A stretch of 64,000 bases of DNA from an uncultured Candidatus Saccharibacteria bacterium (GTDB lineage Bacteria; Patescibacteriota; Saccharimonadia; Saccharimonadales; JAGQNJ01), in contig CAZRSX010000004.1 in assembly GCA_964602865.1 (NCBI GenBank), positions 20,388-84,387 of the forward strand. The letters run 5' to 3'. Below are positions 19,974 to 35,877 of the stretch, piece by piece. A program made the translations under genes and the position numbers. The stretch's first letter is position 1. Every line of letters starts with the position of its first letter. The notes under the pieces are model-generated. The model saw only the letters and a list, made by a program, of their open reading frames with translations. It was not told the DNA's origin and did no database searches.

Positions 19974-20085
19974 TTACGCCTTATTATCTGCGGTCTCGGC
20001 CTCATGCGCGGCACCCTTATACTGCTCTAGCGATAGCGGTTTTTTGGCGAAGTTAAAGCCGAAGGCGCTTCCCCTGCCCGTCAGT
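19974..20085 (-). pseudogene. R2: relic of a histidine-kinase 3' end
   Basis: Reads G(R)GSAFGFNFAKKPLSLEQYKGAAHEAETADNKA*. Positions 20035-20080 match 20826-20871 at 44/46 nt. Confidence 0.6.
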
Positions 20086-20767: not shown

Positions 20768-23017
20768 TCAACTATTATATTCTTTGGAATGGCTGCTTGT
20801 GGCGCCGTTGAGGTGTTCGGGTTCCAGCGGTTTTTTGGCGAAGTTAAAGCCGAAGGTGCTTCCCTTGCCCTCTTGCGTCTTGAATACAATGGCGCCGCCT
20901 TGCGCGACCACCACTTTTTTGGCCATAAAGAGGCCGAGCCCGGTACCGTCAGGGCGGGCCTTTTTAGCATTGCTGGCACGGTAAAACTTGCCAAACAGAT
21001 GGTGCTGCTCGCTCTTGGGCACGCCCAAGCCGTCATCGACCACTCGAAATTCGATCGAATCGCCCAGATCTTCCAGCTCTACCTTGATATGCCCCCCTGT
21101 TGGCGTGTAGTAAATAGCGTTATCGGCAAAGTTCATGATCACCTGGCGTATCTTGGTCTCATCAAGCATGAGGGCTGGGAAATTCTTTGGCTTCTGATAG
21201 GTCAGCTCCAGGCCGCGACCCTTCGCCGTCTCTGTTAATTGGGCGATCTCGCCCTCGACCACATCAGCCAAATTCGTCGGCTTGGCCTCTATGATGAACT
21301 TGCCGGTGCGCAAACGCGAGACGTTGAGCAGGTCGGCTATCAGATAGACCATGCGTTGCGAGCTGACAAAGGCCTGGTCAAGCAGCTCCTTTTGCTTGCT
21401 GTTGACCTTGCCCGCGTCGCCCTCCAGCACCATGCTGACATAGCCTTTTACAGAGGTCAGCGGCGTGCGTAACTGGTGCGATGCCATGCTGATGAAGTCG
21501 TCTTTGGTCTGGTCCATTGCTTTGAGCTTCTCGTTGGCTTTGCGCAAATTCCTGGTCGCTTCATCAACCTTGCCTTCCAATGTTTTCGCAAAGTTCTGAA
21601 TTTCCTCATATTGCAACGCGTTCTCGATTGCAATTGCCAGTTCGTTGGTGACAATTTCCATGGCGTCGGTGTCCTGCGAGTTGTAAATTGTACCGCTCTT
21701 TTTATTACCCAAAACCATATAGCCGACCCCTTCGCTGTTGGTGCTCTTCGTTATGCGGGCAACCACGGCAATATTTTCCTGGACCAGCAAAGCCTTTAGA
21801 TCCGTCTCTTTGGCTTCCAACAGATCTGTCAGCATGAGTTTTGTTTTGTTGCTCGATATGTAGCTCCGCATTTGGTCAATCACTTTTTCGGTAACCTCTG
21901 TATTCTGAGTATGTAAAACGCGTACACCTTGCTCCTCGTCAATCAGGGCAAAGGTGCAAAATTCGGACCGTAGGTATTTCTCTATCACACCAGCTGACTT
22001 TGCCAGCAGTTTCTCCAGCTCAATCGTGGAAACAATGGCCTGGTTAAACTCATCCAGAAGGTCTTTGGTATCATAGGCATCTCTGTAAAAAAGTTTGTTG
22101 GTAACACGATCAAAGAATCTTTTTGCCGGTAAGTATGTCAATGCGAGCACTACAGTGGTTATCACATAAAAGAGCCTCAAAAAGTCATCATTGGCACCTA
22201 GTCGAGATAAATAGCCGGATGCTACCAAGAGAGCAGCAGCAGCAGCAGCAGCCAGAGAGCCAAGAGATAATACGTACCCCAGTGTGCGAGCAACAACTAA
22301 GCGAAGGTCAAACAGCCTGTGTCGAGTGATAGCATAGGCCATACCAATTACCCAAAAAGCCAAAGATAACGATCCGATTCCTGCAAGATTATAATTTCCC
22401 AGTATCGGCAAAACCGCCGTACACACCAATACAATAGGTATAGTAATTATAAAGGTAACAATTATTGTATCAATCTGCGCCTTAAGTATGCCGTTTAGCT
22501 TAAAATGTCCTCGTATAAGTAAGCTGGATATCAAACAGAATTGTACAAACAGCGAAAGAAAATAATACACAGACAATATACCGAAAGTGTTTACGTATAC
22601 TCCCTGGTTCAACTCTACTGAGCTAACTACTAATGGAGTAAGTGATGCCACCCAAGCAAAGCAAAGTGCTAGTAGTCCTATTATGGACATTTTTTTAGAT
22701 AATCTGCGTCCAGCTATGCAAATGATGAACACATAAATCGACAACATCGCTAGGCCGCCAGTCACTAACGTTACCCTATTGGATAAAAGTGCGGCATTAT
22801 TCGATAAACTAGTATCGTTGGCGAAATAATTAGTGGTTAGCCATGTTGACATACTCAATGAAACAGCAAAATAGGCTTGGTTCAGTTTTTGTCGAGGATT
22901 TCTCAGCAATACCAATAAGCCGATTACAAGTAGCACCGCCAGAACAATTACTAATAAAACTGTATACAAATCGAGCATTTCCATAGTAATTATGCTCGTG
23001 CCTATCTTATCAGTCAA
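20768..23017 (-). CDS. Sensor histidine kinase with N-terminal multi-TM (7TM-type) input region, GAF-like middle, HisKA and HATPase_c
   Basis: About 8 hydrophobic helices in the first 300 aa. H-box SHQLRTPLTSVKGY, N-box DNAIYYT, G-boxes DDGLGVP and GTGLGL. TTG start abuts the ThiF stop (ATG alternatives at 22984/22978). Confidence 0.9.
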   Translation of the reverse strand: MTDKIGTSIITMEMLDLYTVLLVIVLAVLLVIGLLVLLRNPRQKLNQAYFAVSLSMSTWLTTNYFANDTSLSNNAALLSNRVTLVTGGLAMLSIYVFIICIAGRRLSKKMSIIGLLALCFAWVASLTPLVVSSVELNQGVYVNTFGILSVYYFLSLFVQFCLISSLLIRGHFKLNGILKAQIDTIIVTFIITIPIVLVCTAVLPILGNYNLAGIGSLSLAFWVIGMAYAITRHRLFDLRLVVARTLGYVLSLGSLAAAAAAALLVASGYLSRLGANDDFLRLFYVITTVVLALTYLPAKRFFDRVTNKLFYRDAYDTKDLLDEFNQAIVSTIELEKLLAKSAGVIEKYLRSEFCTFALIDEEQGVRVLHTQNTEVTEKVIDQMRSYISSNKTKLMLTDLLEAKETDLKALLVQENIAVVARITKSTNSEGVGYMVLGNKKSGTIYNSQDTDAMEIVTNELAIAIENALQYEEIQNFAKTLEGKVDEATRNLRKANEKLKAMDQTKDDFISMASHQLRTPLTSVKGYVSMVLEGDAGKVNSKQKELLDQAFVSSQRMVYLIADLLNVSRLRTGKFIIEAKPTNLADVVEGEIAQLTETAKGRGLELTYQKPKNFPALMLDETKIRQVIMNFADNAIYYTPTGGHIKVELEDLGDSIEFRVVDDGLGVPKSEQHHLFGKFYRASNAKKARPDGTGLGLFMAKKVVVAQGGAIVFKTQEGKGSTFGFNFAKKPLEPEHLNGATSSHSKEYNS

Positions 23018-24085
23018 TTATAGATTGCTAGCAACCTGAGTACGATACTCTACACGAGCTTGTCTTTGTTTGTCGCTATAGCTAGCTGACGGGTTTAATC
23101 CTAAAGTATTACGAGCCAATATGCGCAAGACCCGCATCGTAGATACTAGCCTGGAGCGCTTAGTAACAAAATCTTCACCTTGACTGGGATTAACGCAGTG
23201 TACTTCTGGATAAAAATGCGGTTTACCGTAGCGTTTGTCACCTAGGGTCAAAAGTTTCTCGAACTCATCCATTGCTAGATCCGTTGCGTTAAAAACGCTC
23301 CGTAAAGCAGTAGGCAGAGAAACGCCTTTCTTTTGAGTAGCCAGCAACGTTTGAAAATCTGTCGTTAGTGGAATATTCGGAATAGTGGGTAGCTGAAAAC
23401 CTGTAATTTTTTTATTGTATTCTTCGGCTGTTTGGTCTGGTCTGCCACCCGTAGAGTGCTCAAAGGTATGTTCTAAATCATTTGGGTCAAAAGTCGTGAC
23501 CATACCGCCACGCTCGATATCTGTTGCACAAATCACGAAACGACCAAACCTACGAGCAGTACGGTGATACATTAGCATGAGATGAGGTTCGGTAATTTCT
23601 ATTTCATCGAATCCAACCGTTAAGCCCCTGTTCTTTGCGTCGTATCCTAAAAACTCATCAACGTTATGCTCTTGCACTCCTTCACTATAAACCCGCACTT
23701 CGGCAGTAGGATTGTGTTGAGTTATCAACTCCGCGACAACATCAGCTTTTGGACGCCCTACGTCATCTGGTGTGAATATTGGGATACGACCAACGTTGCT
23801 CGGTTCGACCGTTTCAATATCGGCAATACTAAAATCACCTACGCCCTCTTTGGCTAACATTACAGCAAGTGTCGCACCGCCACCACCGCAGCCCGCTATA
23901 CGAGCGGATGAGTCAATAAACTTCTGGCGCAAATCCTCTGTATAAAACCCCATAGCCCTATCAAAGTATAGTGAGCATGGATCGTCCATCAGTACCTCAC
24001 CGGCTGGGGGGTCTATCAAGTGGCGGCCCTGCAGAGTATATGAAGCTTTTTCTATAGTATCGATAAATTCAGTCATTTCACTCAC
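23018..24085 (-). CDS. ThiF/MoeB/HesA-family E1-like adenylyltransferase with about 140-aa C-terminal extension
   Basis: IAGCGGGGATLAVMLAKEGVGDFSIADIETVEPSNVGR matches the GxGxxG...D.D.V..SN..R signature. Confidence 0.8.
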   Translation of the reverse strand: MSEMTEFIDTIEKASYTLQGRHLIDPPAGEVLMDDPCSLYFDRAMGFYTEDLRQKFIDSSARIAGCGGGGATLAVMLAKEGVGDFSIADIETVEPSNVGRIPIFTPDDVGRPKADVVAELITQHNPTAEVRVYSEGVQEHNVDEFLGYDAKNRGLTVGFDEIEITEPHLMLMYHRTARRFGRFVICATDIERGGMVTTFDPNDLEHTFEHSTGGRPDQTAEEYNKKITGFQLPTIPNIPLTTDFQTLLATQKKGVSLPTALRSVFNATDLAMDEFEKLLTLGDKRYGKPHFYPEVHCVNPSQGEDFVTKRSRLVSTMRVLRILARNTLGLNPSASYSDKQRQARVEYRTQVASNL

Positions 24086-24860
24086 CCATTAAGCTATCTG
24101 GGAAATATCCCAATCCGGACGTTTCCTCAGCGCTCCTAAAGAACTCCTGCAGATTAACACCGCAAAAATCAGTCACCACTGAGGTAGGAACTTCGTTTAG
24201 CGGAGTCATCAGCGGATATAACGTACGGATACCCCCCGGTTCCTCCACTTCTTTTTGTTCAGTAACAGGAATCAACGGTATGCCCATTCCCTCAAGTAAA
24301 CGCTTTACTGGTGCCTCAATCTCAAAATATGTTGTGGGTATACCACGATTAAGCAAACCATCTACCACAACACGTACCAGGGCAACTGCCGCAATATGTG
24401 GAATCTTATTTCTATCGTTAGAAATAAATCTTGAGGTTTCCGACTTGGGCATATTAATTTTTAAATTGAATTCTGCTTCCAACGGTAGTGGAGTAGCATC
24501 AGATTCACCAACAATACCACGAATACCTGCTACCACTTGTGCTGTCTTGTGGTTTCCATCCGTAGCACTTTTAACTATCGCGTAGTGCAGTGACTGGTCA
24601 TCATACTCATCATACTCACGACCTTGTGCATCAAGACATTCCAGAGGTAAGAAACCTCGTTTGTGAACATATTCATTACCACGCAAATGACCAATAGCGC
24701 CCCAAAGCTCCTCATCGTGTATCGTACCAAATGCAGCAACTTCACCAATGTAATAAACAGCTTCCGGATGCTCCCCAAAAATACGTTCGTGGGGAACACT
24801 AAGTTTTGGCTGGTCTGTTACCGATTTAGTTATTTCTGGTGAGATTGTTGTTATTGCCAT
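24078..24860 (-). CDS. LuxI/FeeM-like (autoinducer-synthase fold) N-acyltransferase, tentative
   Basis: HLRGNEYVHKRGFLPLECLDAQGREYDEYDDQSLHYAIV...VVAGIRGI...ETSRFIS parallels the LuxI pattern R..VF...GW....G.E.D.YD...Y......G..R...E.SRF. Confidence 0.5.
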   Translation of the reverse strand: MAITTISPEITKSVTDQPKLSVPHERIFGEHPEAVYYIGEVAAFGTIHDEELWGAIGHLRGNEYVHKRGFLPLECLDAQGREYDEYDDQSLHYAIVKSATDGNHKTAQVVAGIRGIVGESDATPLPLEAEFNLKINMPKSETSRFISNDRNKIPHIAAVALVRVVVDGLLNRGIPTTYFEIEAPVKRLLEGMGIPLIPVTEQKEVEEPGGIRTLYPLMTPLNEVPTSVVTDFCGVNLQEFFRSAEETSGLGYFPDSLMGE

Positions 24861-24870
24861 GCTGATACCT

Positions 24871-25794
24871 CTATCCGGTTACTTCAACGGGTGAAGAACT
24901 ATTAGTTGGTGATTTTTTAGTAAAAATCCTCTTCGGTAAACTTCTTCTTCTCTCCGGTTGAGAAGACTCCGTTATCTGAGTTTTGCTCAATTCATCTTCA
25001 TTCTGATCTTTTTGACTGATCTTTTTCAATATAGCTCGTCTCTCTTTCCATTTGACAATTCCGAAAATTGATCCAACCACAGCGCCCATAGTCAAAGGGT
25101 TACTAATAACATCGGTGATCACTTCTGTAGCATTGTCAACTCCAGCCCATTCAACGCCACGAGCAGCTCCCAGTACTACTGCTGCGCTTACGGTGTAGTT
25201 CAATGTAACCCCCCCAGCCGCAATAGCAACGGTTCTTAGATTGTCCCTTGGTGTTCGTTCTCGATTCCTTAGGTTTTCGTAAAGCACGGTTCCGGAAGTC
25301 AATACAAGTGACGCAATCGCATATATCCGAGCAATATCACCGGCAGAGCTTTTTCCTCTCGCCTCTCTCTTTGCTTCTTGCTCTTGAATCTTTTGCTTGT
25401 TGATGTACCGATTACTTATTACATCCATAGCTGGACGTAGTTTCTCTGCACAGTAAGCAACACCAAGCCCTGATAGAAGCTCTGATGTCGCTGTAACTCC
25501 CCCTGAAACTGCAGCAGCCGCAAGAATATTTCCACCGGTAGCCGCCATTGTTGCTCCTGCAGCTACACCCACCAGCATTTCATTAGTGGGCAGTTGCTGA
25601 AATCCCGTAATTCCTGTTGTTCCTAAAAGTATTGCCTTATCTTGACTACTTAATTCTCTTGCCGATTCTTTGCCAGCATCTAAAATATCAGCGACATTTT
25701 CGGGATGTCTACTCGCAGACCACCATACATTAACAGCATGCAAATAATCACCTGCGATAGGAGCTTGGGATACTAGAATTTCTGCGCTATTCAT
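24871..25794 (-). CDS. Hypothetical Gly/Ala-rich multi-TM membrane protein
   Basis: 307 aa, with glycine-zipper-like hydrophobic segments and a basic/Ser-rich tail. First gene of the operon. Confidence 0.45.
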   Translation of the reverse strand: MNSAEILVSQAPIAGDYLHAVNVWWSASRHPENVADILDAGKESARELSSQDKAILLGTTGITGFQQLPTNEMLVGVAAGATMAATGGNILAAAAVSGGVTATSELLSGLGVAYCAEKLRPAMDVISNRYINKQKIQEQEAKREARGKSSAGDIARIYAIASLVLTSGTVLYENLRNRERTPRDNLRTVAIAAGGVTLNYTVSAAVVLGAARGVEWAGVDNATEVITDVISNPLTMGAVVGSIFGIVKWKERRAILKKISQKDQNEDELSKTQITESSQPERRRSLPKRIFTKKSPTNSSSPVEVTG

Positions 25795-25820
25795 AAAATA
25801 TAATCTCCGACTTAAAAATA

Positions 25821-25860
25821 AAAAGACACCCTCCGCCCTTTTCTGGCTTTGGTGTCTTTT
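25821..25860 (-). terminator. Terminator-like hairpin located inside the 5' leader of the operon (possible attenuator)
   Basis: Reverse strand: AAAAGACACC-20 nt-GGTGTCTTTTTATTTTT, lying between the promoter at 25880-25908 and ATG 25794. Confidence 0.45.
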
Positions 25861-25879
25861 CTTCTAAAGTACTGTGGAC

Positions 25880-25908
25880 ATAATACTACAAAAACGTCAA
25901 CGTGTCAA
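25880..25908 (-). promoter_or_regulatory. Candidate promoter TTGACA-17-TATTAT
   Basis: Reverse strand: cgcTTGACAcgttgacgtttttgtagTATTATgtcc. Confidence 0.5.
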
Positions 25909-26023
25909 GCGATTTTGTAAAAATACTTTTGGTTATTTACCTCAAGGGACTGGCGTCGTATTTTAGCATAAGACAAAAACGTCAACTCCAAAATATCTGT
26001 CTTTTTGCCTACGTTTTAGTTAC

Positions 26024-26419
26024 TTAGTATTTCAAGTCCAGCCCAGAGTGAAAACCCTTAGGTTTCTCATAATGCTTGCTCAAGAAACGTCGTCTTAGAA
26101 TCCAGCCCGCGGCACCTACCAAAAGGGCTAGGCTTGCGGCTCCTGTCATTTCGGGAATATTGTTAGCCTCTTGACTGGCAAGCGCTTCATCAGAAGTGGA
26201 GACTGGTATTTCAGGGCTTAGTATTTGATCTTCAACAACTTGTCCTATTTGAGCACCAGCAAGTGCTGCAAGTCCAGTTGAAAGTACTACACCTCCAAAT
26301 GTTCTAACACCGTCTACCATTCTCAAATAATCAGGGTCATTCCAAGGATCATTCCAACCAGTTTTGGGTTCATCACCAAAAAGATCTGGATTGTTTTGGG
26401 AGTCTATGTCTATTGTCAT
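26024..26419 (-). CDS. Small two-TM protein with internal IPEMTG-hydrophobic-RRRF (sorting-signal-like) segment
   Basis: 131 aa; acidic N-terminus (DPWNDPDY); two hydrophobic helices. Confidence 0.45.
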   Translation of the reverse strand: MTIDIDSQNNPDLFGDEPKTGWNDPWNDPDYLRMVDGVRTFGGVVLSTGLAALAGAQIGQVVEDQILSPEIPVSTSDEALASQEANNIPEMTGAASLALLVGAAGWILRRRFLSKHYEKPKGFHSGLDLKY

Positions 26420-26485
26420 AATTTTTATTATGAATAATTTTTAACATTTGTCAAGTAGCATCAGGTCGCCTGCATAAATTTAGGC

Positions 26486-27460
26486 TTAGGTAATCGCGGT
26501 TTGTTTCTTATACTTGGCCTTCCGCGCAGTATCTCCCCACGGTTCAATGGTATATTTTCTGAAGAAGTTATTGGCTCCTATGGCAACCATAAACATTCTG
26601 AGGTGTTGTATGTCGTAGTCTGCACCAAGGTTCACATAGCTAAAGCCTTGCTCTGTAAACCATCTGGAAAACACATATGCAATTAGCTCGAAGCCGAACA
26701 TTGATTGGTGCGTTGCCTTGATGTGTTTTACTACGACGTATCTTTTGTCGCTGGGAACTTTGTACAGACAAAAACCATATAATTCGTTGTCTACATAGAG
26801 GCACAGATTATCTATGCCAAGCCGATCAGCATTCTTTATGTAGAATGTCATGCAATCGTCCTCTATGCTACCGAAGTCGTTGATCGGATTTTTTGTACGC
26901 CATGCTACCGCAGACAACAATTGATCTTTGCCAGCCTTGGTATTTAAATCCACCTTCGTGGCAACAATGTGCTCGGCACCAAATTCTTTGAACTGTTTTT
27001 CTACTTTTTTACGCCAGTGGCCCACCATATTACCCAAAGGATAAAAGTGGGATAATGGCACAATGCATTCATTTAAACGCCTGGTTTCTTCCAGATGAAA
27101 AAGTTCGTGATATTTAATCTGTTGAACCGTGAATTCCGGCACATTGACCAGGCGAACGGGTTCACCCTGAGCTTGTAAATAATCAAAAATCTCGCATATG
27201 GACTCGTCTATATTTTTTGTGCCGATCAAAGAAAGTCCAGAGTTAATTTCATCACCCGGCAACCAATAAGGTATAACCAGGTTATCATTAAGCTTGCTTA
27301 TAGTGATGTTGTTTAAAGGGTTCCACCAGGCCATAAGACCAGGAAACGAAATGTCATAAATTGGCGGGAAATCAGCAATCAAGGCTTCGTAAGCCTCTTT
27401 ATGGCCAAAAGTAAGCTCGGTAAATGTGGGAAAACTACTAAATGTATGTGTCGTTTTCAC
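26486..27460 (-). CDS. DUF2156 / phosphatidylglycerol-lysyltransferase-C-terminal-like (aminoacyl-tRNA-dependent transferase fold), tentative
   Basis: Pattern ISFPGLMAWW ... GHWRKKVEKQFKEF ... VNLGADYDIQHLRMFMVAIG..FFRKYTI resembles DUF2156. Start set at the GTG preceded by AGGAG (track ORF extends to 27535). Confidence 0.5.
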   Translation of the reverse strand: MKTTHTFSSFPTFTELTFGHKEAYEALIADFPPIYDISFPGLMAWWNPLNNITISKLNDNLVIPYWLPGDEINSGLSLIGTKNIDESICEIFDYLQAQGEPVRLVNVPEFTVQQIKYHELFHLEETRRLNECIVPLSHFYPLGNMVGHWRKKVEKQFKEFGAEHIVATKVDLNTKAGKDQLLSAVAWRTKNPINDFGSIEDDCMTFYIKNADRLGIDNLCLYVDNELYGFCLYKVPSDKRYVVVKHIKATHQSMFGFELIAYVFSRWFTEQGFSYVNLGADYDIQHLRMFMVAIGANNFFRKYTIEPWGDTARKAKYKKQTAIT

Positions 27461-27741
27461 TTTATTACTCCTGATACGTACCACGATACTCTTGTATTGG
27501 TAAATGCGCCAGCTAAAAATCATTGCAAGATGCAACGCTATAGCTGAGGAACCGGATAATGGTCAATCAAGGATTGACAAATGTGGCTGCAAGGCAATCT
27601 GATGAGCTCAGCTTGTCGTTTTCACTCATATATTATACCACGATTACTGCTATTATGCTTATAGCTTGGTCCTTCGTGCTGATGGGATAATTACCTTGCT
27701 AAAATATTTACGTACATACAAAAATCTGCTATAAACTATTT

Positions 27742-28332
27742 ATGTACGTGCTTGGACAAGGCTTGAGTTTACCAGAGACAGAGCGTCCCCTGCCTTCGTT
27801 TGTGGTAACGGGAGCATCGGCTTCTGGCAAAACTACCCTGGTAGAGGAAGCTTTACAGTATGGTTATGCACACCTACCAACAGAGACAACAAGATCTCCA
27901 AGGGTCGGCGAGACTCCTGGAGTCCATAGCACATTCATAGAAGAATCTGCTTTTCAGGAAAACTTCGTAGCTGGTAAATACCTGGAGGAGAGTCTCGAGT
28001 ATGCACGCGTAGGAGTCACCCGTGTTTACTATGGCACTCCTAAGTCATGGCTCAAGGAGTTGCGTACAGACGGACGATGTGCGACACCGATTGCTCCAGA
28101 CATTGCACGGGTTGTACTTCGTTATGCTAATGTACAGTGGATACACCTTGTCTGTGATGACCTTGACAGGGCCAAGAGACTACGAACACGCGGCATAAGT
28201 GAGCGAGAGGTGGTAGCCCGTATGAATGGCGGGCATAGTATTAGAGAGCTGCCTGAAGAGTCAGTGGTCATTAATACCTCCGAGGTACGACCAGCAATCA
28301 TATTACAACGAATTATGGAGCATAGATCATGA
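27742..28332 (+). CDS. Guanylate-kinase-like P-loop nucleoside-monophosphate kinase
   Basis: GASASGKTTL ... TETTRSPRVGETPGVHSTFIEESAF...GKYLE...YYGTPK parallels Gmk (GPSGxGKST...TTRxPRxGExDGxDYxF...YGT). Confidence 0.7.
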   Translation: MYVLGQGLSLPETERPLPSFVVTGASASGKTTLVEEALQYGYAHLPTETTRSPRVGETPGVHSTFIEESAFQENFVAGKYLEESLEYARVGVTRVYYGTPKSWLKELRTDGRCATPIAPDIARVVLRYANVQWIHLVCDDLDRAKRLRTRGISEREVVARMNGGHSIRELPEESVVINTSEVRPAIILQRIMEHRS

Positions 28333-29774
28333 GTGGGCTTTATGAAAATCAAAAAACAGTTCGCAGTCTTAGGGCAATGATTGAGGACGTGCGCCCTCAG
28401 GGTAGCGAGACCTATTTTTTTGTGCTCGGACATCCTCGATCAGATATCGGCAAGGGGACACTGGTTGCACAGTTACTAGCCTGCACACCAGGATCAGATG
28501 CGATTAAATTTGATGGGCTGCTTAACACGAATGAAAACGGTCGCCACACTGCAGTCGGTCATGATGATTTTGGCGTATACGAGCGGTTTAATTCGGGTCG
28601 GAGTTGGGGTCGCGAACATTATCTGTTGGGAGGTGAGCTGTACCGAGACTTCATTAATGAGTTTGGCGAAAACGAAAATCTTCAGATTAATCCTCACCTA
28701 TCGCTCTATGTGGAATACAGGATTCATAAAATGTGGCAGGACGTTGGCCGACCAAAGCATTTTTTCATTGAGGTTGGGGGGCTACTCGCAGACCCTGAAG
28801 TTGATCCCATATTTACCCCCATCATACAACGTCTAGGAGAGGATGGTCTGGGTAAAGTTATTATGCTGACGGAAATGTCTTGGAATGGTGAACATATTAA
28901 AACTAAGGCGGCCCAGAGTGCAGTACAAGAACTTGCTTCTCGTCATATTAGGCCATGGTGCGTAGTGGTCAGAGATGCTCCAGATATTACCAACACCACA
29001 TGGTCAGAACGGCTTGAGTTTGAGCGAGTAATCTCGGCCAAAATTTTCAATAGCTTTAACTTCCGTCTAATGCGTGTTATATCTGTCCCTTATTTTGCGA
29101 ATTTACAGAAGTACACGGAATACATTATACAAAGATTCAGACCATTCCTATCAAGAAGCGAGTCGAACAACATCGTTATTGCCACAGGCAATGATGCTAA
29201 GTTTGCAGATTTTAGACTGTATCTTGACGGCAGACATTATTTACAGCAATCAAGAGAAATGCCTCAACGCGTAGAGGTGCCTGAAGGTATTAGCTCAATC
29301 GAAGATAACGCAATCGCCAAAGCAAGGGCATGGGCTGTAACGACTGGCCAGCTTGCCATTGGTGACGACACGGGGTTCTTTATGCGTGAACTCAACGGTG
29401 AACCAGGAGTAGCGCTTCGCCGTTGGGGCGGCGAACTTGGCGAGGATGCAACACATGAAGATTTTTGGCATTATCTGCAAGATAAAACCAAGAACCTGCG
29501 CAATCTTGGCTGCTACTTTGAGCAGTGTATTGCTATTGTGTCCCCAAACGGGGAAATGCGCATTATACGCAACCGCAATGAAGGCGTGTTAAATAGGGAA
29601 AAGTTGCAACTTCCATACAATGGGAGTGGCTATCCTCTCGGTGCCGCATTTGAGTCAAACGCACGCGAACAAGGCAAAACATGGGACAGCATGACCGATC
29701 AAGAAAAGCGGGACTTTGATAAGGAGTTAATTGCTAAAATTGCCAACGCGCTTGATTCGCTTTCTCGCACCTAG
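28329..29774 (+). CDS. Fusion: CTP-synthase N-terminal (amidoligase) domain-like, without glutaminase domain, plus Ham1/RdgB-type NTP pyrophosphatase domain
   Basis: N-terminal half: YFFVLGHPRSDIGKGT, FDGLLNTNENG, DFGVYERF, FFIEVGGLLADPE, IKTKAAQSAVQEL parallel PyrG. C-terminal half: VIATGNDAKF, IEDNAIAKA, GDDTGF...GEPG parallel RdgB. Confidence 0.7.
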   Translation: MSGLYENQKTVRSLRAMIEDVRPQGSETYFFVLGHPRSDIGKGTLVAQLLACTPGSDAIKFDGLLNTNENGRHTAVGHDDFGVYERFNSGRSWGREHYLLGGELYRDFINEFGENENLQINPHLSLYVEYRIHKMWQDVGRPKHFFIEVGGLLADPEVDPIFTPIIQRLGEDGLGKVIMLTEMSWNGEHIKTKAAQSAVQELASRHIRPWCVVVRDAPDITNTTWSERLEFERVISAKIFNSFNFRLMRVISVPYFANLQKYTEYIIQRFRPFLSRSESNNIVIATGNDAKFADFRLYLDGRHYLQQSREMPQRVEVPEGISSIEDNAIAKARAWAVTTGQLAIGDDTGFFMRELNGEPGVALRRWGGELGEDATHEDFWHYLQDKTKNLRNLGCYFEQCIAIVSPNGEMRIIRNRNEGVLNREKLQLPYNGSGYPLGAAFESNAREQGKTWDSMTDQEKRDFDKELIAKIANALDSLSRT

Positions 29775-29811
29775 ATTAATTTTAAACTTGCGAGGAGACT
29801 ACCCCTTCACG

Positions 29812-30435
29812 CTAATACAGCTCGTGTTCCTCAAGATAAGAGTGCAGGGCTTTGCCGAGTTTAGCCCAACTGATTTCAACCTGTAGCTGCTCAGATGGGC
29901 TCAGGTCAAAGAAATTCTTTCCTCCAAACTGAGGAAACTCCCAAATTGAACACAGCCAAATTCCCGGTTTGTATTTGTTCGGATCAAAATGATTTCCCAT
30001 GAGTCCCTCTATCCCCTTGACGGCGATGCTAAACAACCGCTTGTCATTTTTACACAGTGCTATCGCCTCTTGCCAGAACATTGTCCGCTCAAAACCGGTT
30101 TTGCCTCGCATCAGGTGCAACACTTTGTCGATTCTATCTCTGTCGGTCGCATTATTACCTGCAAATCGTCGAGTATAGAGCGGGTTCCATTCTGGTAGCG
30201 ATGGAATAATCACACCTCCGTCCGTTGCTACAACCAGCCCGTCAAAAGTTTTTGAGTACTCTTGTGCCTTCAGAATTGCATTTTTCTCAAATGAGGCCTC
30301 ATTTTCCTGAATCTGGAGATCTTCAACGTCATCAAGTGTGTAGAATTTTACATCCCTATTTTTCCGTTGAAACATCTGTTTGATCTTATGAACTTTGTGA
30401 GGATTTTTTGTCGCGATGAGAATATTTTGCGGCAT
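29812..30435 (-). CDS. Divergent Ham1/RdgB-like NTP pyrophosphatase paralogue
   Basis: ILIATKNPHKVHKI...ENEASFEKNAILKAQ...VVATDGGV. Start at the ATG preceded by GGGAGAT (track ORF extends to 30498). Confidence 0.6.
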   Translation of the reverse strand: MPQNILIATKNPHKVHKIKQMFQRKNRDVKFYTLDDVEDLQIQENEASFEKNAILKAQEYSKTFDGLVVATDGGVIIPSLPEWNPLYTRRFAGNNATDRDRIDKVLHLMRGKTGFERTMFWQEAIALCKNDKRLFSIAVKGIEGLMGNHFDPNKYKPGIWLCSIWEFPQFGGKNFFDLSPSEQLQVEISWAKLGKALHSYLEEHELY

Positions 30436-30642
30436 TTTTATCTCCCAGATAATTGGTTTTGCTCCATAATAACATCTTGCTCTCTTGATAGGCTTCAAAG
30501 ATTAAGTGTCATGGGCTTTTGACAGAGCCACGCTTGACAAACGCCGAAGCGGGGCATATAACTATAAGCAGAACATTAGAAGCAAAAAGCAGCGTATCGT
30601 CCACGAAGGCGGTGCGCTGTTTTTCATGTAGAAAGGCGCATC

Positions 30643-31014
30643 ATGGCACACAAAATCCTTATCATCGAAGACGACCAAGCTATCTCACAGATGTATCGTA
30701 TTAAGTTTGAGAGTGAGGGGTATAGTGTTGAGACGGCTGAGAATGGGAAGTTAGGCTTAGCGTTAGCAGAGACTATGAAGCCAGACATTATTCTGTTGGA
30801 CTTAATGATGCCCGAGATGACTGGTGATGAGATGTTGAAGAAACTGAGAGCTACCACATGGGGTAAGACCATCAAGGTGGTGATATTGACGAATATGGGG
30901 GAGGCCGAGATAACCGAAAACGTTTTGGAGCTGGGCGTCGACGGTTTTATCGTCAAGGCGCAGTACACTCCTACTCAGGTGGTCGAGAAGCTCAAACAGA
31001 TCCTGACCGAGTAA
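30643..31014 (+). CDS. Single-domain response regulator (receiver only), RR-1
   Basis: ILIIEDD...DIILLDLMMPEMTG...VVILTN...KA. N-terminal 81 codons are identical in DNA to RR-3. Confidence 0.9.
   Translation: MAHKILIIEDDQAISQMYRIKFESEGYSVETAENGKLGLALAETMKPDIILLDLMMPEMTGDEMLKKLRATTWGKTIKVVILTNMGEAEITENVLELGVDGFIVKAQYTPTQVVEKLKQILTE
30661..30903 (+). repeat. 243-bp perfect direct repeat, copy 1
   Basis: Base-for-base identical to 35470-35712 (checked by eye line by line). Confidence 0.95.
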
Positions 31015-31073
31015 GGCAGTCTAGGCTTAATATCAATGCTGCTGAGGCCAGCATAAACAAAGTAACTCTAGTG

Positions 31074-32093
31074 CTACGAGACAGGAACCGTGCTAAAGTC
31101 TGAGATAACACCGTGTGTGGCATGCTGAGATAAGCGGACAAGCGAAGAATTGTCATAGACGTCTCCACGGACAGTTATAATGTCTCCTACAACGGCACAG
31201 CCAATATACTGATACCCTTCGAGAAGCACCGTTACTTTATCTCCTGATCTATTTTCACAGAGCAAAGCCGGTGATGTACAGAAACCTTCTGAATCATCAA
31301 TAACTTGGAGCTGCCCTTCGTAAGGACAGCTCCGTTCATGGCAAGGTACTGCATCCCAAAGGCTCGGTGAGCCGGGATCCCGTGCAACTTTAAGATCTAT
31401 CGAAAGTGGGTACGGATCGGGCAACCTTATCTGTGAAGTTGCCCATCGCTTTGCTTTTAAGTGTTGGCGTTTTTCGGGTAGTCGTTGATACGGGTCAATA
31501 TCTGACCATAAAAATGCTGATTGGAGCTCGTTCATTACGCCCTTAAACTCTTCAAAATTTGATGCCTGAAAAACAATGTCAACATCATCAACCGGTTTTG
31601 GCGCTACCCCTACAAGCCCGAACGAAGCTGCTCCGTACAGCGCTAGATCATCGGTCGTTACCCCCGCTTTTTCGAGAGCCGTACAGGCTATTTGTAAGGC
31701 AGCCTGAAACGGCTGGGCTAAATCACTTTCAAAACCAAACCACGTATCAAGCTTCTTGTACTTCGAATCAGCCGATGTACAGCTAGATGTATCCAAAAAT
31801 ATTCCGACGGCCTCTGCGGAAGTATAGGCTAAAAGACGTTCAACTATCTCGTTACGTTCTATTGTTTCAAGTCGCTCACGTTCTTCTGGCAATCCTTGGT
31901 ATACAAATCTTCGGAAATATTCATCTCCCTCAAGGGCTCGTTTTGTAGCCTGTTCTGGTTGTGTTTGATAATACGCTGCAACTGCATCATGCTGATTCAA
32001 ACCAAGAGAACGACCGAGACAATATATAACGCTAAGCTCGTCTTGCACGTATACCCATTCGTTTTGAATAGATTCAGTGACGGGTGTGTTCAT
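31074..32093 (-). CDS. Pol-beta-superfamily nucleotidyltransferase-like protein with N-terminal helical domain and C-terminal OB-like domain
   Basis: LYGAASFGLVGVAPKPVDDVDIVF fits the G[SA]...DxD NTase signature. The C-terminal beta-rich VTVLLEGYQYIGCAVVGDIITVRGDVY is OB-like (inference). Confidence 0.45.
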   Translation of the reverse strand: MNTPVTESIQNEWVYVQDELSVIYCLGRSLGLNQHDAVAAYYQTQPEQATKRALEGDEYFRRFVYQGLPEERERLETIERNEIVERLLAYTSAEAVGIFLDTSSCTSADSKYKKLDTWFGFESDLAQPFQAALQIACTALEKAGVTTDDLALYGAASFGLVGVAPKPVDDVDIVFQASNFEEFKGVMNELQSAFLWSDIDPYQRLPEKRQHLKAKRWATSQIRLPDPYPLSIDLKVARDPGSPSLWDAVPCHERSCPYEGQLQVIDDSEGFCTSPALLCENRSGDKVTVLLEGYQYIGCAVVGDIITVRGDVYDNSSLVRLSQHATHGVISDFSTVPVS

Positions 32094-33193
32094 GGCCGGT
32101 TTACATTTTCTAACGATTCGGCCTGTGCTGCGTACATCATTGCTTCTGTAACTGTCATCGCACTAATCCCGTCCTTGAGTGTAGCAGACCAACTAAAGTC
32201 AAGTGGAATGCCTGCCGCGATTAACAACATCTCGGCCATTTGAAACGCGAAGCAATCGTGCCAACTAAATGGGTGTGCGCCCTGAACAGTTGGAGAGGCC
32301 CACATTGTAGAGAACATTTCGTCAGGTCGAACATTTTTCTGAGAAACCGTTCCCGTTATATCTCGTATAAATAAATCATTCAAGAAAGCACGATCAATAC
32401 GTAACGCGCCCTTTTCACCATCTATTTCAATATACCCAGTTAAAGGATGCCCGGGACTTGTTCTTGATGCGCTCAAGGTACCAAACGCACCATTCTCAAG
32501 GTTTATCAATGAACTCACTGCATCGTCATTCGTGGCTGATCTCGTGCCCGGGACACTCCATACTCGGCTCGCAGCCTGTACTGAGGTTATATCTCCAGCC
32601 AAAAATTGCAGCAAATCAATATGATGAGAACCTAAATCATCAATAGCACCATGCCCAGCTTGCTTCCTATCAAAGCGCCAGTCATACGAGCCATCGGGTC
32701 GACGCATGTTTAATAGATACACCGATCTGACCATTCGTATTTTGCCAAGATGTCCTGCATTAATATACTCTTTAGCCCGTTGCACTGCGGGGACGAAACG
32801 ATTGACATACGCCACGCGTAGACGTGGATTATCGTTGCCAAGTCTATATATCTCCATGGCTTCTGCATACTCTGCAGCCATGGGCTTTTCTAGAAGCACT
32901 GCAATTCCAGCTTTCACTGCCTGCTTTATAATCGGAAGGTGCTCATTATTAGGTAGAGCCACAATGATTAGGTCAAGGTCGTAATCAAACAGTCGTTCCC
33001 AATTCTTTTCTGCATGCTCCCAGCCGTACTGCTCGGCAGCAGCATGAGCGCGCTCTACCTCTGTATCTACCGCGACAACCAATTCCGGTTTAACTTGTTT
33101 CGAAATAGTTGAACCTTTAACTAGAATCAAAGAACGTGCATGTATATTTCCTGCAAATCCGCAACCTGCGAGTCCAACTCTTACTTTTCTCAT
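32090..33193 (-). CDS. Gfo/Idh/MocA family oxidoreductase
   Basis: MRKVRVGLAGCGFAGNIHA Rossmann start; ..EKPMA..; start at the internal ATG (track ORF extends to 33391). Confidence 0.8.
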   Translation of the reverse strand: MRKVRVGLAGCGFAGNIHARSLILVKGSTISKQVKPELVVAVDTEVERAHAAAEQYGWEHAEKNWERLFDYDLDLIIVALPNNEHLPIIKQAVKAGIAVLLEKPMAAEYAEAMEIYRLGNDNPRLRVAYVNRFVPAVQRAKEYINAGHLGKIRMVRSVYLLNMRRPDGSYDWRFDRKQAGHGAIDDLGSHHIDLLQFLAGDITSVQAASRVWSVPGTRSATNDDAVSSLINLENGAFGTLSASRTSPGHPLTGYIEIDGEKGALRIDRAFLNDLFIRDITGTVSQKNVRPDEMFSTMWASPTVQGAHPFSWHDCFAFQMAEMLLIAAGIPLDFSWSATLKDGISAMTVTEAMMYAAQAESLENVNRP

Positions 33194-33204
33194 AAAACGT
33201 TCTC

Positions 33205-33642
33205 CTAAAGAGATTCCTCTATCATAGCTATCATCTGTTTTGTCATTTCTGCAGTCATTGGAACTTGAGGCCTTTGGTCTCGCCATGGTGCGCGATCCGG
33301 ATCCGCTTCTTCGCTCGGAAAACGTGGAATGAGATGCATGTGTATATGAGCTACCTTGTTGCCGAGTACTGCAATATTGACTCGCTTGCAATGAGTCGCT
33401 TGCTTAATAGCACGTACTACCTTCTGCGAATCTTGTACAAAAGTACTCAGCAATTCTGGTGGCACCATTTCCCAGGAATCATAGTGCTCGCGGAGTGCCA
33501 GTATGCACCGTCCGCGAAAACGAGAGTCGTTGTACAAAACGAGATCGCTGACTGGCAAAGATTTTATTCGGTCGCGTAGTTTGAACCCACAGGCTGGGCA
33601 TGGAGCGTCAAAAAGAGGTTTTGTTAGATCATCAGATTTCAT
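33205..33642 (-). CDS. HIT family nucleotide hydrolase/transferase
   Basis: Histidine triad HIHMHLIPR; N-terminal CPACGF zinc motif. Confidence 0.85.
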   Translation of the reverse strand: MKSDDLTKPLFDAPCPACGFKLRDRIKSLPVSDLVLYNDSRFRGRCILALREHYDSWEMVPPELLSTFVQDSQKVVRAIKQATHCKRVNIAVLGNKVAHIHMHLIPRFPSEEADPDRAPWRDQRPQVPMTAEMTKQMIAMIEESL

Positions 33643-33700
33643 GAGTACACTATACGCTTCTAATAATAACTAGTAAACGTCAATCTTGTTATAATGCTCA

Positions 33701-34285
33701 GTGATGGGAAATCTTATTTTAATACGACACGGTGAGTCGGAATGGAACGCTTCAGGCAGATTTGCCGGAACGGCTGATATATCACTAACTACTAAGGGAC
33801 GCCAACAAGCTCGCGACATTGCTCGGCACCTTCCCCGCCTCAAGCTTAACGCTGTTTACGCTTCCGAACTTAAACGTGCGAAGCAAACGTTACATGAAAT
33901 AGTAACCACTCGTGGCTTATCAGGCGTTTCTATTGTCACCGCCGGTGCGCTCAACGAACGAGATTATGGCAACTTCACCGGGCAACTTAAAACTGAAATC
34001 ATTAGTAAGATTGGCGAGAATGGATATGCTCAACTGCGCAATAGATGGGACTATAAGCCGCCGGCCGGAGAATCCCTAGAGATGCTGTCTGATAGAGTTG
34101 TGAATTTTTTCGAATCAAGAATTATGCCAGATTTAAAAAAAGATTACAACGTACTTGTGGTTTCTCACAACAACACGCTTCGAGTGCTCATTCTGCACTT
34201 GAGAAAACTTCCGCCGACTAAAATTCAGACTATCCAATTAGGTAATGGGGAGATTGTCTCATTCTCATTTGAAAAAACTTTATGA
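33701..34285 (+). CDS. Histidine phosphatase family protein (phosphoglycerate-mutase-like)
   Basis: LIRHGESEWN catalytic motif; ...VVSHNNTLR. Confidence 0.8.
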   Translation: MMGNLILIRHGESEWNASGRFAGTADISLTTKGRQQARDIARHLPRLKLNAVYASELKRAKQTLHEIVTTRGLSGVSIVTAGALNERDYGNFTGQLKTEIISKIGENGYAQLRNRWDYKPPAGESLEMLSDRVVNFFESRIMPDLKKDYNVLVVSHNNTLRVLILHLRKLPPTKIQTIQLGNGEIVSFSFEKTL

Positions 34286-34294
34286 CCGTCTGTT

Positions 34295-34864
34295 TTAGGC
34301 TTTAGGGTCATAAATGCTTATTGAAAGGTGCACACGTTCTTTCTGAGAGGCGTTGAGTGCAGTGTGGGGTAGTGTAGTACTGAATACGTACAGTCTCCCG
34401 TCTACCGCCACGTGACACATTTCTCCATTCCTGCACGCTACGAAACAGTCAGGGTTTGTTCGTATGGCCAACTGTGCATGAGGGGCTGCATCTTGGTGCA
34501 TTGTAATGATTGTTGTTGGCGGTAATACGCTAAGACGCATAATACTAAAGGCAAACGGCAGACTTTTAACAAGGCTCGAGAGATTTGTGTTTTGATACTC
34601 TTTTTTCAGCACCGCTTGTGTGTCACGATCAAAAAAGCCGCCCTTATTAAGCTCGTCATAATGAATAATGCCTGCTTCATCCTTCTCTGGGTCTGGTGCT
34701 TCGGTGAGTAGAATAGAATACGGTTTTGTGAAATCAGTTTCAGGCGAAGCATTGTGTTTATACGCTGCTAGTAATTTCTCGCAATCCTCAACGATAAGAT
34801 CTGTGTTTATGCTTAACTCAATGACATCCTGTAGGAAATCCTTTGATACTTGTACTTTTTTCAT
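34295..34864 (-). CDS. Aspartyl/asparaginyl beta-hydroxylase-like cupin (2OG/Fe(II) oxygenase), tentative
   Basis: HQD ... LPHTALNAS ... KERVHL fits the HxD...H...R arrangement. Confidence 0.45.
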   Translation of the reverse strand: MKKVQVSKDFLQDVIELSINTDLIVEDCEKLLAAYKHNASPETDFTKPYSILLTEAPDPEKDEAGIIHYDELNKGGFFDRDTQAVLKKEYQNTNLSSLVKSLPFAFSIMRLSVLPPTTIITMHQDAAPHAQLAIRTNPDCFVACRNGEMCHVAVDGRLYVFSTTLPHTALNASQKERVHLSISIYDPKA

Positions 34865-35037
34865 TTCATACCTTCTGCTGTTAATCTAACTCTAAATGAA
34901 AAGTTTTTGCAAACACTTATAAAAAGCAAACCTGCGCAATAGCCAACTGTGGTTCGCATGCCAGGTGCTGTTTTTGAGCAAATTTTAACGCTAGCTTTGA
35001 TGCTCACAAGCCTACTTTGCTATACTAAGAACAATTT

Positions 35038-35433
35038 ATGACAACACAAAAAATTACCGTTGTTGAAGACGAGCCCGCTATTTGCAACATGTATAAAATG
35101 AAGCTTGCGAGTTCTGGGTTTGATGTCAGCGTTGCGTTTAATGGCAAAGAAGGCCTTGAGGTCGTCGAAAAACACAAGCCCACCCTCATATTGCTGGATA
35201 TCAAAATGCCGGTCATGAGCGGCGATGAAATGCTTGAGAAGCTCCGCCAAACAGATTGGGGTGCCGATATTCGCGTGATTATTTTGACCAACATCAGCCG
35301 CGATGAGGCGCCGCATAACTTACGACTGCTGAATATTGACCGCTACATTGTCAAAGCCCACTACACACCGACACAAGTGATTGATATCGTCAACGAAGTC
35401 CTTGGCCTGCCAAATAAGCCGCCGCGCCGATAA
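35038..35433 (+). CDS. Single-domain response regulator, RR-2
   Basis: ITVVEDE...TLILLDIKMPVMSG...VIILTN...KA. Confidence 0.9.
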   Translation: MTTQKITVVEDEPAICNMYKMKLASSGFDVSVAFNGKEGLEVVEKHKPTLILLDIKMPVMSGDEMLEKLRQTDWGADIRVIILTNISRDEAPHNLRLLNIDRYIVKAHYTPTQVIDIVNEVLGLPNKPPRR

Positions 35434-35451
35434 CATGATAAGATTAAACAT

Positions 35452-35823
35452 ATGCCAGCAAAAGTAGCCATCATCGAAGACGACCAAGCTATCTCACAGA
35501 TGTATCGTATTAAGTTTGAGAGTGAGGGGTATAGTGTTGAGACGGCTGAGAATGGGAAGTTAGGCTTAGCGTTAGCAGAGACTATGAAGCCAGACATTAT
35601 TCTGTTGGACTTAATGATGCCCGAGATGACTGGTGATGAGATGTTGAAGAAACTGAGAGCTACCACATGGGGTAAGACCATCAAGGTGGTGATATTGACG
35701 AATATGGGGGAGCAAGAAATCCCTGACGACGTTAAAAAACTCGGTGTCGTGGCAGTGATTTTGAAGGCCGACATGACCCCGCGCCAAGTCGCGGAACTCG
35801 TCAAAACACAACTCAAAACATAG
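35452..35823 (+). CDS. Single-domain response regulator, RR-3
   Basis: Receiver motifs; shares the 243-bp identical block with RR-1, then diverges. Confidence 0.9.
   Translation: MPAKVAIIEDDQAISQMYRIKFESEGYSVETAENGKLGLALAETMKPDIILLDLMMPEMTGDEMLKKLRATTWGKTIKVVILTNMGEQEIPDDVKKLGVVAVILKADMTPRQVAELVKTQLKT
35470..35712 (+). repeat. 243-bp perfect direct repeat, copy 2
   Basis: Identical to 30661-30903. Confidence 0.95.
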
Positions 35824-35840
35824 CACCACATGCTTATGTT

Positions 35841-35871
35841 TTGACAGATATCAAAACATAACTGGTACAAT
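35841..35871 (+). promoter_or_regulatory. Candidate promoter TTGACA-19-TGgTACAAT, 6 nt before the murD ATG (leaderless geometry)
   Basis: TTGACAgatatcaaaacataacTGGTACAATagctgtATG. Confidence 0.5.
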
Positions 35872-35877
35872 AGCTGT

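Follow-up and report, generated by a model that had tools for sequence, protein, structure and literature searches.

The 64,000-nucleotide stretch analysed here (the window; positions 20,388 to 84,387 of contig CAZRSX010000004.1, assembly GCA_964602865.1), from an uncultured Candidatus Saccharibacteria bacterium, carries a two-gene module in which a guanylate-kinase-like nucleoside monophosphate (NMP) kinase precedes a protein that joins a CTP-synthase-type amidoligase domain, devoid of glutaminase, to a Ham1/ITPase-type pyrophosphatase domain. The amidoligase half retains the catalytic and substrate-binding residues of the CTP synthase PyrG and has lost the segment that forms its ammonia tunnel. 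Amidoligase and kinase are inherited together as an accessory pair, and in one archaeal genome the amidoligase coexists with a canonical PyrG. Our preferred interpretation, to which we assign a probability of roughly 45%, is that the module is an accessory nucleotide base-conversion operon of ultra-small, host-dependent prokaryotes, gained and lost among them, and not a housekeeping PyrG. In general terms, its most likely function would be the ATP-dependent amination of a carbonyl group on a putative nucleotide substrate, using free ammonia or an amine.

Architecture of the module and comparison with PyrG, RdgB and Gmk

No route from uracil to cytosine nucleotides other than CTP synthase is known, and this enzyme has always been described as a fusion of a glutaminase and an amidoligase. 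The features of the module and of the gene facing it are as follows (window coordinates; aa, amino acids; Ec, residue numbering of E. coli PyrG; NTP, nucleoside triphosphate):

27742–28332, plus strand: guanylate-kinase-like NMP kinase gene, 196 aa, a dedicated paralogue
28329–28332, plus strand: ATGA stop/start overlap, read from the sequence (kinase TGA at 28330–28332, fusion ATG at 28329–28331)
28329–29774, plus strand: fusion gene, 481 aa, with a CTP-synthase-type amidoligase (residues ~1–275) and a Ham1/ITPase-type domain (residues ~282–481)
28428–28460, plus strand: P-loop GHPRSDIGKGT, residues 34–44; K42 corresponds to Ec K18, invariant in 22/22 aligned members
28503–28589, plus strand: K60 (Ec K40), D62 (Ec D42, uracil contact), family-specific loop LNTNENGRHTAVGH and D80 (Ec D72)
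28767–28799, plus strand: IEVGGLLADPE, residues 147–157; E148 (Ec E140), G150–G151, D155 and E157 (Ec D147 and E149, ribose contacts)
28896–28934, plus strand: IKTKAAQSAVQEL, residues 190–202; K191, T192, K193 and Q196 (Ec K187, T188, K189 and Q192), binding of the substrate-NTP triphosphate
29172–29771, plus strand: Ham1/ITPase domain of the fusion; ATGNxxK (residues 285–291), E319, N327, K331 and D346–D347
29812–30435, minus strand: divergent second paralogue of Ham1 (207 aa), convergently oriented to the fusion gene across a 37-nt gap

A GGAG sequence lies 8 nt upstream of the ATG of the fusion gene, and the four-nucleotide overlap of this gene with the kinase gene suggests that both may be translationally coupled. 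The fusion matched the Pfam family PF06418 (CTP_synth_N) at residues 79–270 (E 3.7e-13, 49.9 bits; cutoff 26.1), and its N-terminal half matched CTP synthases in Foldseek (E about 1e-14). Its scores for the PyrG equivalog models were far under the cutoffs (TIGR00337, 35.9 vs. 462.75; NF003792, 40.3 vs. 308). No match to a class-I glutaminase (PF00117/GATase) was found by Pfam in the fusion, the C-terminal half of which is Ham1 both by Pfam and by fold. The AlphaFold2 model of the protein was confident (predicted local distance difference test, pLDDT, 89; predicted template-modelling score 0.87), and this bifunctional architecture, lacking tunnel and glutaminase, was matched as a whole by no solved protein in Foldseek. 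In profile alignments, the family followed solved CTP synthases between the P-loop and residue ~225, and RdgB/ITPases along its C-terminal half.

For the comparison of residues, 22 family members were aligned with E. coli PyrG and a canonical archaeal PyrG, and residue roles were taken from the substrate-bound structure of the Drosophila CTP synthase (dmCTPS; PMC8325340). Ec K18, K40, D42, D72, E140, G142–G143, D147, E149, K187, Q192 and R211 were invariant in all 22 members, with conservative variation at T188 (T/S), K189 and K223 (both K/R). In dmCTPS, the K16A and K38A substitutions abolish activity, and the equivalents of Ec K18, K40, D72 and E140 serve the phosphorylation of O4; the D42 equivalent makes a hydrogen bond to the uracil N3-H, those of D147 and E149 contact the ribose, and that of R211 contacts the ribose of ATP (PMC8325340). 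Across 101 family members, including standalone forms that lack Ham1, no variation was seen in the catalytic lysines, in the ligands of Mg2+ or in the residues that bind the NTP, and the reaction centre for the ATP-dependent activation of an NTP carbonyl is predicted from them to be intact.

The situation is the opposite for the delivery of ammonia. The ammonia tunnel of PyrG involves Ec P54, H57 and V60, and a segment at Ec 105–110 couples the reaction to GTP (PMC8325340). Both the tunnel segment (Ec ~48–64) and Ec 106–110 were cleanly deleted in all aligned family members. The former is replaced by a family-specific, Arg/His-rich loop with the motif NTNxNGRH (residues 64–80 of the window protein, LNTNENGRHTAVGHDD), in a region that showed the lowest confidence of the model (pLDDT 63–67); residues 59–73 are, tied with the P-loop, the most conserved 15-residue segment of the amidoligase domain over the 101 members. 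This pattern points to a new conserved element at the putative entry point of the nucleophile and to the loss of the dedicated ammonia supply. With neither glutaminase nor tunnel segment left, the nucleophile must come from solution. Taken together, the fusion shares with PyrG (EC 6.3.4.2) the fold, the P-loop, the catalytic set K18/K40/D72/E140, the D42 contact and the ribose and triphosphate sites, but differs in having a Ham1 domain at the C-terminus instead of the glutaminase and a conserved loop instead of the tunnel, and it belongs to a discrete clade that falls below the equivalog cutoffs and can coexist with a true PyrG.

The Ham1 half (PF01725 Ham1p_like, residues 282–464, E 2.2e-22, 80.3 bits against a cutoff of 22.5) has the fold of the Staphylococcus aureus Ham1 protein (4bnq; template-modelling score 0.86 in Foldseek). 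It shares with the RdgB/ITPA/Ham1 pyrophosphatases (EC 3.6.1.66), besides the fold, the equivalents of RdgB N10, K13, E41, N49, K53 and D68–D69 (N287, K291, E319, N327, K331 and D346–D347 in the window fusion). It differs from them in the attached amidoligase, in lacking the YDP aspartate and the C-terminal SHR motif, with variable FDK/SDR-type sequences in place of the latter, and in scoring under the RdgB equivalog cutoff (TIGR00042, 61 vs. 145.35). In canonical ITPases, the SHR motif reads the 6-oxo group of the base. In addition, nearly all Ham1 catalytic residues are replaced in one subgroup (P0066, P0069, P0071 and P0073).

The kinase is a borderline match to PF00625 Guanylate_kin (25.3 bits against a cutoff of 25.2) and scores well below the Gmk equivalog cutoff (TIGR03263, 54.6 vs. 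160.45). Its motifs comprise the P-loop GASASGKTT (residues 24–32), TTRSPRVGE (49–57), YLEES (80–84), VYYGT (95–99) and KRLRTRG in the LID (145–151). In comparison with E. coli Gmk (EC 2.7.4.8), it keeps the P-loop, the TTRxPRxGE motif with the phosphate-binding arginines R41 and R44, the LE glutamate E72, YYGT and the arginines of the LID. Y53 and the acidic DID segment are missing, and the kinase further differs from Gmk in forming a small subfamily co-inherited with the amidoligase. The acidic segment of Gmk helps to read the 2-amino group of guanine.

These results bear out the description of the two genes in the earlier note, made from the window sequence alone: the genes do overlap by four nucleotides, the four motifs it quoted align to the P-loop, D72, E140–E149 and K187–Q192 regions of PyrG in a protein without glutaminase, and a Ham1-type domain is fused to the amidoligase. 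The residue comparison with the UTP and tunnel sites of PyrG that it had proposed separated the two sites, with the catalytic and UTP contacts kept and the tunnel segment deleted.

Distribution, co-inheritance and loss

A word-indexed search of 5.8 billion proteins recovered 77 clusters, nearly all of them with the two-domain fusion architecture, and a few standalone amidoligases of ~280 aa, one of them from Nanoarchaeia. The named members belonged to Saccharimonadales or Patescibacteria and were labelled only as XTP/dITP diphosphohydrolase, so the amidoligase half is invisible to metabolic reconstruction based on annotations. An exhaustive hidden Markov model (HMM) search of 1.84 billion representatives gave 29 clusters at E <= 1e-30, about 8 with the fusion and about 15 standalone, with a clear gap in score between the family (at least 125 bits) and canonical PyrG (at most 77 bits). 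Ten loci were found among 185,579 species-representative genomes, and the family as a whole comprises Saccharimonadales, other Patescibacteria and a Nanoarchaeon. As more than 75 clusters (90% identity) contain it, the fusion is neither a chance open reading frame (ORF) nor an assembly chimera. In a neighbour-joining (NJ) tree the clade was monophyletic relative to PyrG, with one standalone group basal and another interleaved with the fusions. In the literature, no description of an amidoligase-Ham1 architecture was found, and the clade, discrete and rare, is apparently undescribed. A phage origin was rejected, as none of 2.9 million viral contigs of IMG/VR encodes a family member. Separately, one protein of the representative library (P0119, 612 aa) carries a divergent copy of the amidoligase at its C-terminus (residues 326–596), behind a 325-aa region without Pfam match.

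Only 25 homologues of the module kinase were detected among the 5.8e9 proteins, 18 of them close, and a separate, more orthodox Gmk is present in related genomes. The kinase gene adjoins the fusion, upstream or downstream, in seven of the nine distinct bacterial genome loci (L002, L004–L008 and L010), including that of a Paceibacterota (38% identity in the kinase), and in about 34 of 36 metagenome fusion loci. It is the sole recurrent specific neighbour of the fusion, the others being generic ABC ATPases. The kinase is a genuine dedicated partner of the amidoligase, co-inherited with it, as the earlier note had supposed. At some loci (L056, 5992–8080; L081, L090, L033, L043, L049, L051 and L052) either the fusion or the kinase is split into two ORFs, which could reflect real decay or assembly frameshifts; L056 contains the nearest relative of the window fusion (64% identity, 538x coverage).

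In addition to the fusions, about 44 metagenome loci encoded a standalone Ham1 of the same subtype (51–62% identity, with HMM scores matching those of the fusions), and none of them had an amidoligase domain or an adjacent guanylate-kinase-like gene. Their positions are syntenic with those of the fusions in related genomes: some lie in the ruvA/ruvB neighbourhood, as does the fusion of L016, and others have downstream genes in common with L006, L007 and L029. In L016 (8538–12526) the fusion is located between ruvA and ruvB and is preceded by a gene for a 192-aa protein with weak likeness to nucleoside 2-deoxyribosyltransferases. In the Ham1-domain tree, the Ham1-only genes branch from within the crown clade of the fusions, at no fewer than three points, and the simplest reading of this rough NJ tree is that amidoligase and kinase were lost recurrently while Ham1 was retained. 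Because the kinase and the amidoligase co-occur and are both absent from the ~44 syntenic loci that keep Ham1, they form an accessory pair. The Ham1 half is the resident ITPase-like gene of the lineage, with a function of its own, onto which the amidoligase was fused, and not a partner made for the module.

A split version of the fusion was found in the Nanoarchaeia locus L013, where an uncharacterised 301-aa ORF separates a standalone amidoligase from a downstream Ham1 of the same subtype. About 4 kb from this amidoligase lies a full-length PyrG (CTP_synth_N, 342 bits, plus GATase), and because of this canonical enzyme nearby the amidoligase is not the ordinary CTP synthase of this archaeon. 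No canonical PyrG was detected in the 64-kb window or within ±10 kb of the bacterial fusion loci. The earlier note had named a case that would count against its proposal, namely that the fusion be the sole, ordinary CTP synthase of the organism and core in all relatives; the rarity of the family, its apparent loss from loci that keep Ham1 and the PyrG of L013 contradict it.

The standalone relatives are encoded in two types of conserved cassettes. The first (L012, 6782–13861; L018, 4322–10782) contains a pyridoxal-phosphate-dependent (PLP) decarboxylase similar to MfnA/histidine decarboxylase, an NDK-like gene, a ~310-aa protein of unknown function, the amidoligase and Nudix genes, plus YjjX-type ITPase/XTPase, GNAT and APH genes in L012, and Ldh_2 and PEP-mutase-like genes in L018; it looks like a small biosynthetic cluster. 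The second (L019, 3611–8555; L020, 3047–7915; L021, 1856–7834) combines the amidoligase with two paralogous HD proteins, weakly dGTPase-like, behind a first gene that encodes an SDR protein in L019 and L021 and an AAA_18 kinase in L020; in L021, an aminotransferase is encoded still farther upstream. The presence of cytidine/dCMP deaminase, resolvase and TraG genes in L019 and of integrase and Y-family polymerase genes in L020 suggests that these two cassettes are on mobile elements. What recurs in the cassettes is the combination of a kinase, the amidoligase and an NTP hydrolase, to which an enzyme generating an amine is added in some cases.

A search with PADLOC 2.0 (2023 database) gave no significant match for the fusion, the second Ham1 or the standalone cassettes, and for the kinase a spurious P-loop match. 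A defence system as the primary reading was rejected, given this empty result for the module and for the cassettes of its relatives and the lack of effector genes nearby. As to the resemblance to modified-nucleotide or antiviral-nucleotide pathways proposed in the earlier note, the proximity of relatives to amine-generating and nucleotide-processing enzymes agrees with the former part, but no association with defence islands, effectors or viruses accompanies it, and the suspected link to defence did not hold. Its statement that no named system matches the module stood up to both PADLOC and the literature search.

Proposed reaction and alternative explanations

The comparisons above establish the architecture, the retained and deleted residues, the joint inheritance of kinase and amidoligase, their accessory status and the occurrence beside a true PyrG in one genome. 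What the enzyme catalyses, on which base and with which nucleophile, and what Ham1 contributes are inferred, and we propose four steps. The kinase, together with the nucleoside diphosphate kinase of the cell, would first lift a salvaged NMP to the NTP. This NTP would be held in the amidoligase by D62, D155/E157 and K191/T192/K193, while ATP and the residues K42, K60, D80 and E148 would serve the phosphorylation of a ring carbonyl, by homology the O4 of UTP. A nucleophile from the solvent, in the simplest case free NH3 and possibly another small amine, would then pass the NTNxNGRH loop and reach the activated carbon, where displacement of the phosphate would yield an amino-nucleotide, CTP by homology. 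Finally, the fused Ham1 domain would cleave non-canonical or surplus NTP to NMP and pyrophosphate, and the kinase could recycle the NMP.

Two known systems follow a comparable logic. In the Z-genome pathway of phages, PurZ, MazZ and DatZ cooperate with the host Gmk on a non-standard amino-nucleotide, and PurZ activates a purine carbonyl with ATP. The module resembles it in combining an NTP pyrophosphatase, a carbonyl-activating aminating enzyme and a guanylate kinase, but the protein families are unrelated (adenylosuccinate-synthetase-like PurZ, MazG-like MazZ) and the pathway is viral, whereas the module was absent from the viral contigs. Kongming, formed by the adenosine deaminase KomA, the Ham1-like sensor KomB and the SIR2 protein KomC, likewise unites a base-modifying enzyme with a nucleotide kinase and a protein of the Ham1 family. 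It illustrates that Ham1-like proteins can bind, and not merely destroy, base-modified NTPs used in signalling (10.1101/2024.12.20.629578, PMC13454610). However, in the module the kinase is encoded by the host, the base-modifying enzyme would aminate and not deaminate, and there is no sign of a defence island. No SIR2 or deaminase domain was found among the genes between 20.7 and 37.2 kb of the window, and over the loci the kinase remained the only recurrent neighbour.

Several points weigh against the interpretation of the module as an accessory base-conversion operon. The substrate base and the nucleophile are not readable from the sequence, and a guanylate-kinase-like partner, instead of a UMP-kinase-like one, is unexpected for an enzyme using UTP. 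The adenine-binding loop of E. coli PyrG (239–241) does not align in the family, and the hydrolysis by Ham1 is, to judge from the degenerate subgroup, not universally needed. In addition, the trees are rough NJ trees, and the fusion may simply be the CTP synthase of those carrier Saccharimonadales that lack a canonical pyrG, if such is their case.

We would only tentatively propose a more radical version, in which the clade is a new class of nucleotide amidoligases with a true reaction other than UTP + NH3 to CTP. The reaction could in this case be the re-amination of ITP or XTP, as a repair of the nucleotide pool or a salvage in organisms lacking PurA, PurB and GuaA, or the modification of a pyrimidine at N4 by an amine other than ammonia, with the NTNxNGRH loop as nucleophile site and with the kinase and Ham1 handling the unusual nucleotide.

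The re-amination of oxopurines, taken on its own, seems to us unlikely. Here purine NTPs with a 6-oxo or 2-oxo group would be the substrates of the amidoligase, which would turn ITP into ATP, XTP into GTP, or GTP into 2-aminoadenosine triphosphate. The kinase would feed it from IMP, XMP or GMP, with the ITPase domain as a safety valve or a means of substrate capture, and cells devoid of PurA, PurB and GuaA could in this way regain adenine or guanine nucleotides. Both partners do belong to purine-type families (guanylate-kinase-like and ITPase/XTPase), a standalone relative is paired with a YjjX ITPase/XTPase, and the kinase lacks the acidic segment that in Gmk reads the 2-amino group. Moreover, the only base-specific contact retained, that of Ec D42 with the uracil N3-H, would equally suit the N1-H of a 6-oxopurine, and the deletion of the tunnel segment opens space beside the base. 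On the other hand, all characterised homologues use UTP, the SHR motif with which canonical ITPases read the 6-oxo group is missing from the Ham1 domain, and one ATP would be spent per ATP made.

We regard as rather improbable that the fusion is a housekeeping enzyme, that is, the sole, minimal, NH3-dependent CTP synthase of the cell, fused to RdgB by chance beside gmk in an operon for the nucleotide pool. The retention of all UTP/ATP catalytic residues, the lack of de novo nucleotide synthesis in Saccharibacteria (PMC10633639), the absence of a canonical PyrG from the window and the surroundings of the other bacterial loci, and the core ruvA-ruvB slot of the fusion in L016 would fit such a role. 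So would the situation in E. coli K-12 (L014, 2908029–2910685), where pyrG itself adjoins mazG, which encodes an NTP pyrophosphohydrolase, a loose parallel to the pairing of amidoligase and pyrophosphatase. Nevertheless, the family is rare and sporadic, the ~44 syntenic loci of close relatives keep Ham1 without amidoligase and kinase after what appear to be repeated losses, a canonical PyrG accompanies the amidoligase in L013, the kinase is a small paralogous subfamily separate from the orthodox Gmk of the lineage, and the TIGR00337 score lies far under the cutoff.

Similarly improbable is the synthesis of a modified nucleotide or signal, in which an amine other than ammonia would be coupled to C4 to give an N4-substituted cytidine nucleotide, and Ham1 would turn the product into a monophosphate for downstream use or for its exclusion from RNA. 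The conserved cassettes of the standalone relatives, with PLP-decarboxylase, NDK-like and Nudix genes or with HD pairs, some of them beside integrase, resolvase or TraG genes, are compatible with such chemistry, as are the highly conserved Arg/His-rich loop of the family and the precedent of Kongming for base-modified NTPs and Ham1-like proteins in signalling. However, the fusion loci themselves are devoid of amine-generating enzymes, transferases and effectors, and neither PADLOC nor the viral contigs provided a match.

Finally, it is very improbable that the amidoligase half is a pseudoenzyme, a non-catalytic regulatory or scaffolding domain on a working ITPase, as its repeated loss with retention of Ham1 and its non-conserved adenine-binding loop might suggest, since the catalytic residues are invariant even in the standalone forms and the degeneration seen in one subgroup affects the Ham1 half instead.

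The accessory base-conversion operon that we favour would rest on a clade that keeps the amidoligase chemistry without glutaminase or tunnel, gains a conserved loop, recruits a kinase and is repeatedly paired with NTP pyrophosphatases (Ham1, YjjX, Nudix or HD). It is a candidate for a new nucleotide base-conversion chemistry in bacteria of the Candidate Phyla Radiation and DPANN archaea, organisms that depend on scavenged nucleotides and have a little-understood nucleotide economy. Should either the substrate or the nucleophile be non-canonical, the enzyme would represent a new activity, re-amination or N4-modification, of use in the biosynthesis of nucleotide analogues.

The second Ham1 gene and the surrounding chromosome

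The gene that faces the fusion (29812–30435) is a real Ham1 homologue, with a partial match to PF01725 (E 4.8e-19, profile positions 1–134), and it was a distant outgroup in the Ham1 tree. The earlier note was right about this convergent gene but not about its membership in the module, which was rejected because the gene adjoins no fusion at any other locus: it is adjacent, not conserved. Its only analogue was seen in L017 (10001–12081), where a distant fusion, with a Ham1 half lacking the catalytic residues, is overlapped at its 3' end by a convergent, degenerate Ham1-like gene; this genome is metabolically richer (succinyl-CoA ligase, hydrolases) and probably does not belong to the Candidate Phyla Radiation.

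The window is chromosomal, and the Rfam analysis revealed a tmRNA and six tRNAs in it; a riboswitch or regulatory RNA upstream of the module was rejected, as nothing beyond these RNAs was returned. Between 27.3 and 30.8 kb no sigma-70-like promoter was found, and terminator-like sites occurred at chance level.

The module lies in a block (22000–36000) with a GC content of 0.40–0.48, compared to 0.50–0.53 in the flanks. In addition to the module, this block encodes a ThiF-like E1, GNAT-like and DUF2156/LPG_synthase_C-like proteins, three response regulators, HIT, a histidine phosphatase (His_Phos) and an Asp/Arg-hydroxylase-like protein. Such a block could be an acquired island, but neither an integrase nor an effector or riboswitch was detected in it.

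Upstream of the module, a run of co-directional genes on the minus strand (23018–27535) encodes the ThiF-family E1-like protein, which matches the E1-E2 models of PADLOC through its adenylation domain, a 260-aa protein with weak likeness to exosortase-associated acyltransferases, two ORFs without family match and the DUF2156/LPG_synthase_C-like protein. This run may constitute a peptide or acyl-transfer system, and its adjacency to the fusion is not conserved in other loci.

On the other side of the module, a 299-nt direct repeat with 92% identity (30661–30959 and 35470–35768) brackets a segment of 4.8 kb. Each copy corresponds to the 5' part of a gene for a single-domain response regulator, and the third response regulator is encoded at 35038–35433. 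Finally, a 45-nt direct repeat with 96% identity (20035–20079 and 20826–20870, spaced 791 nt) was detected near the 3' end of a histidine-kinase gene.

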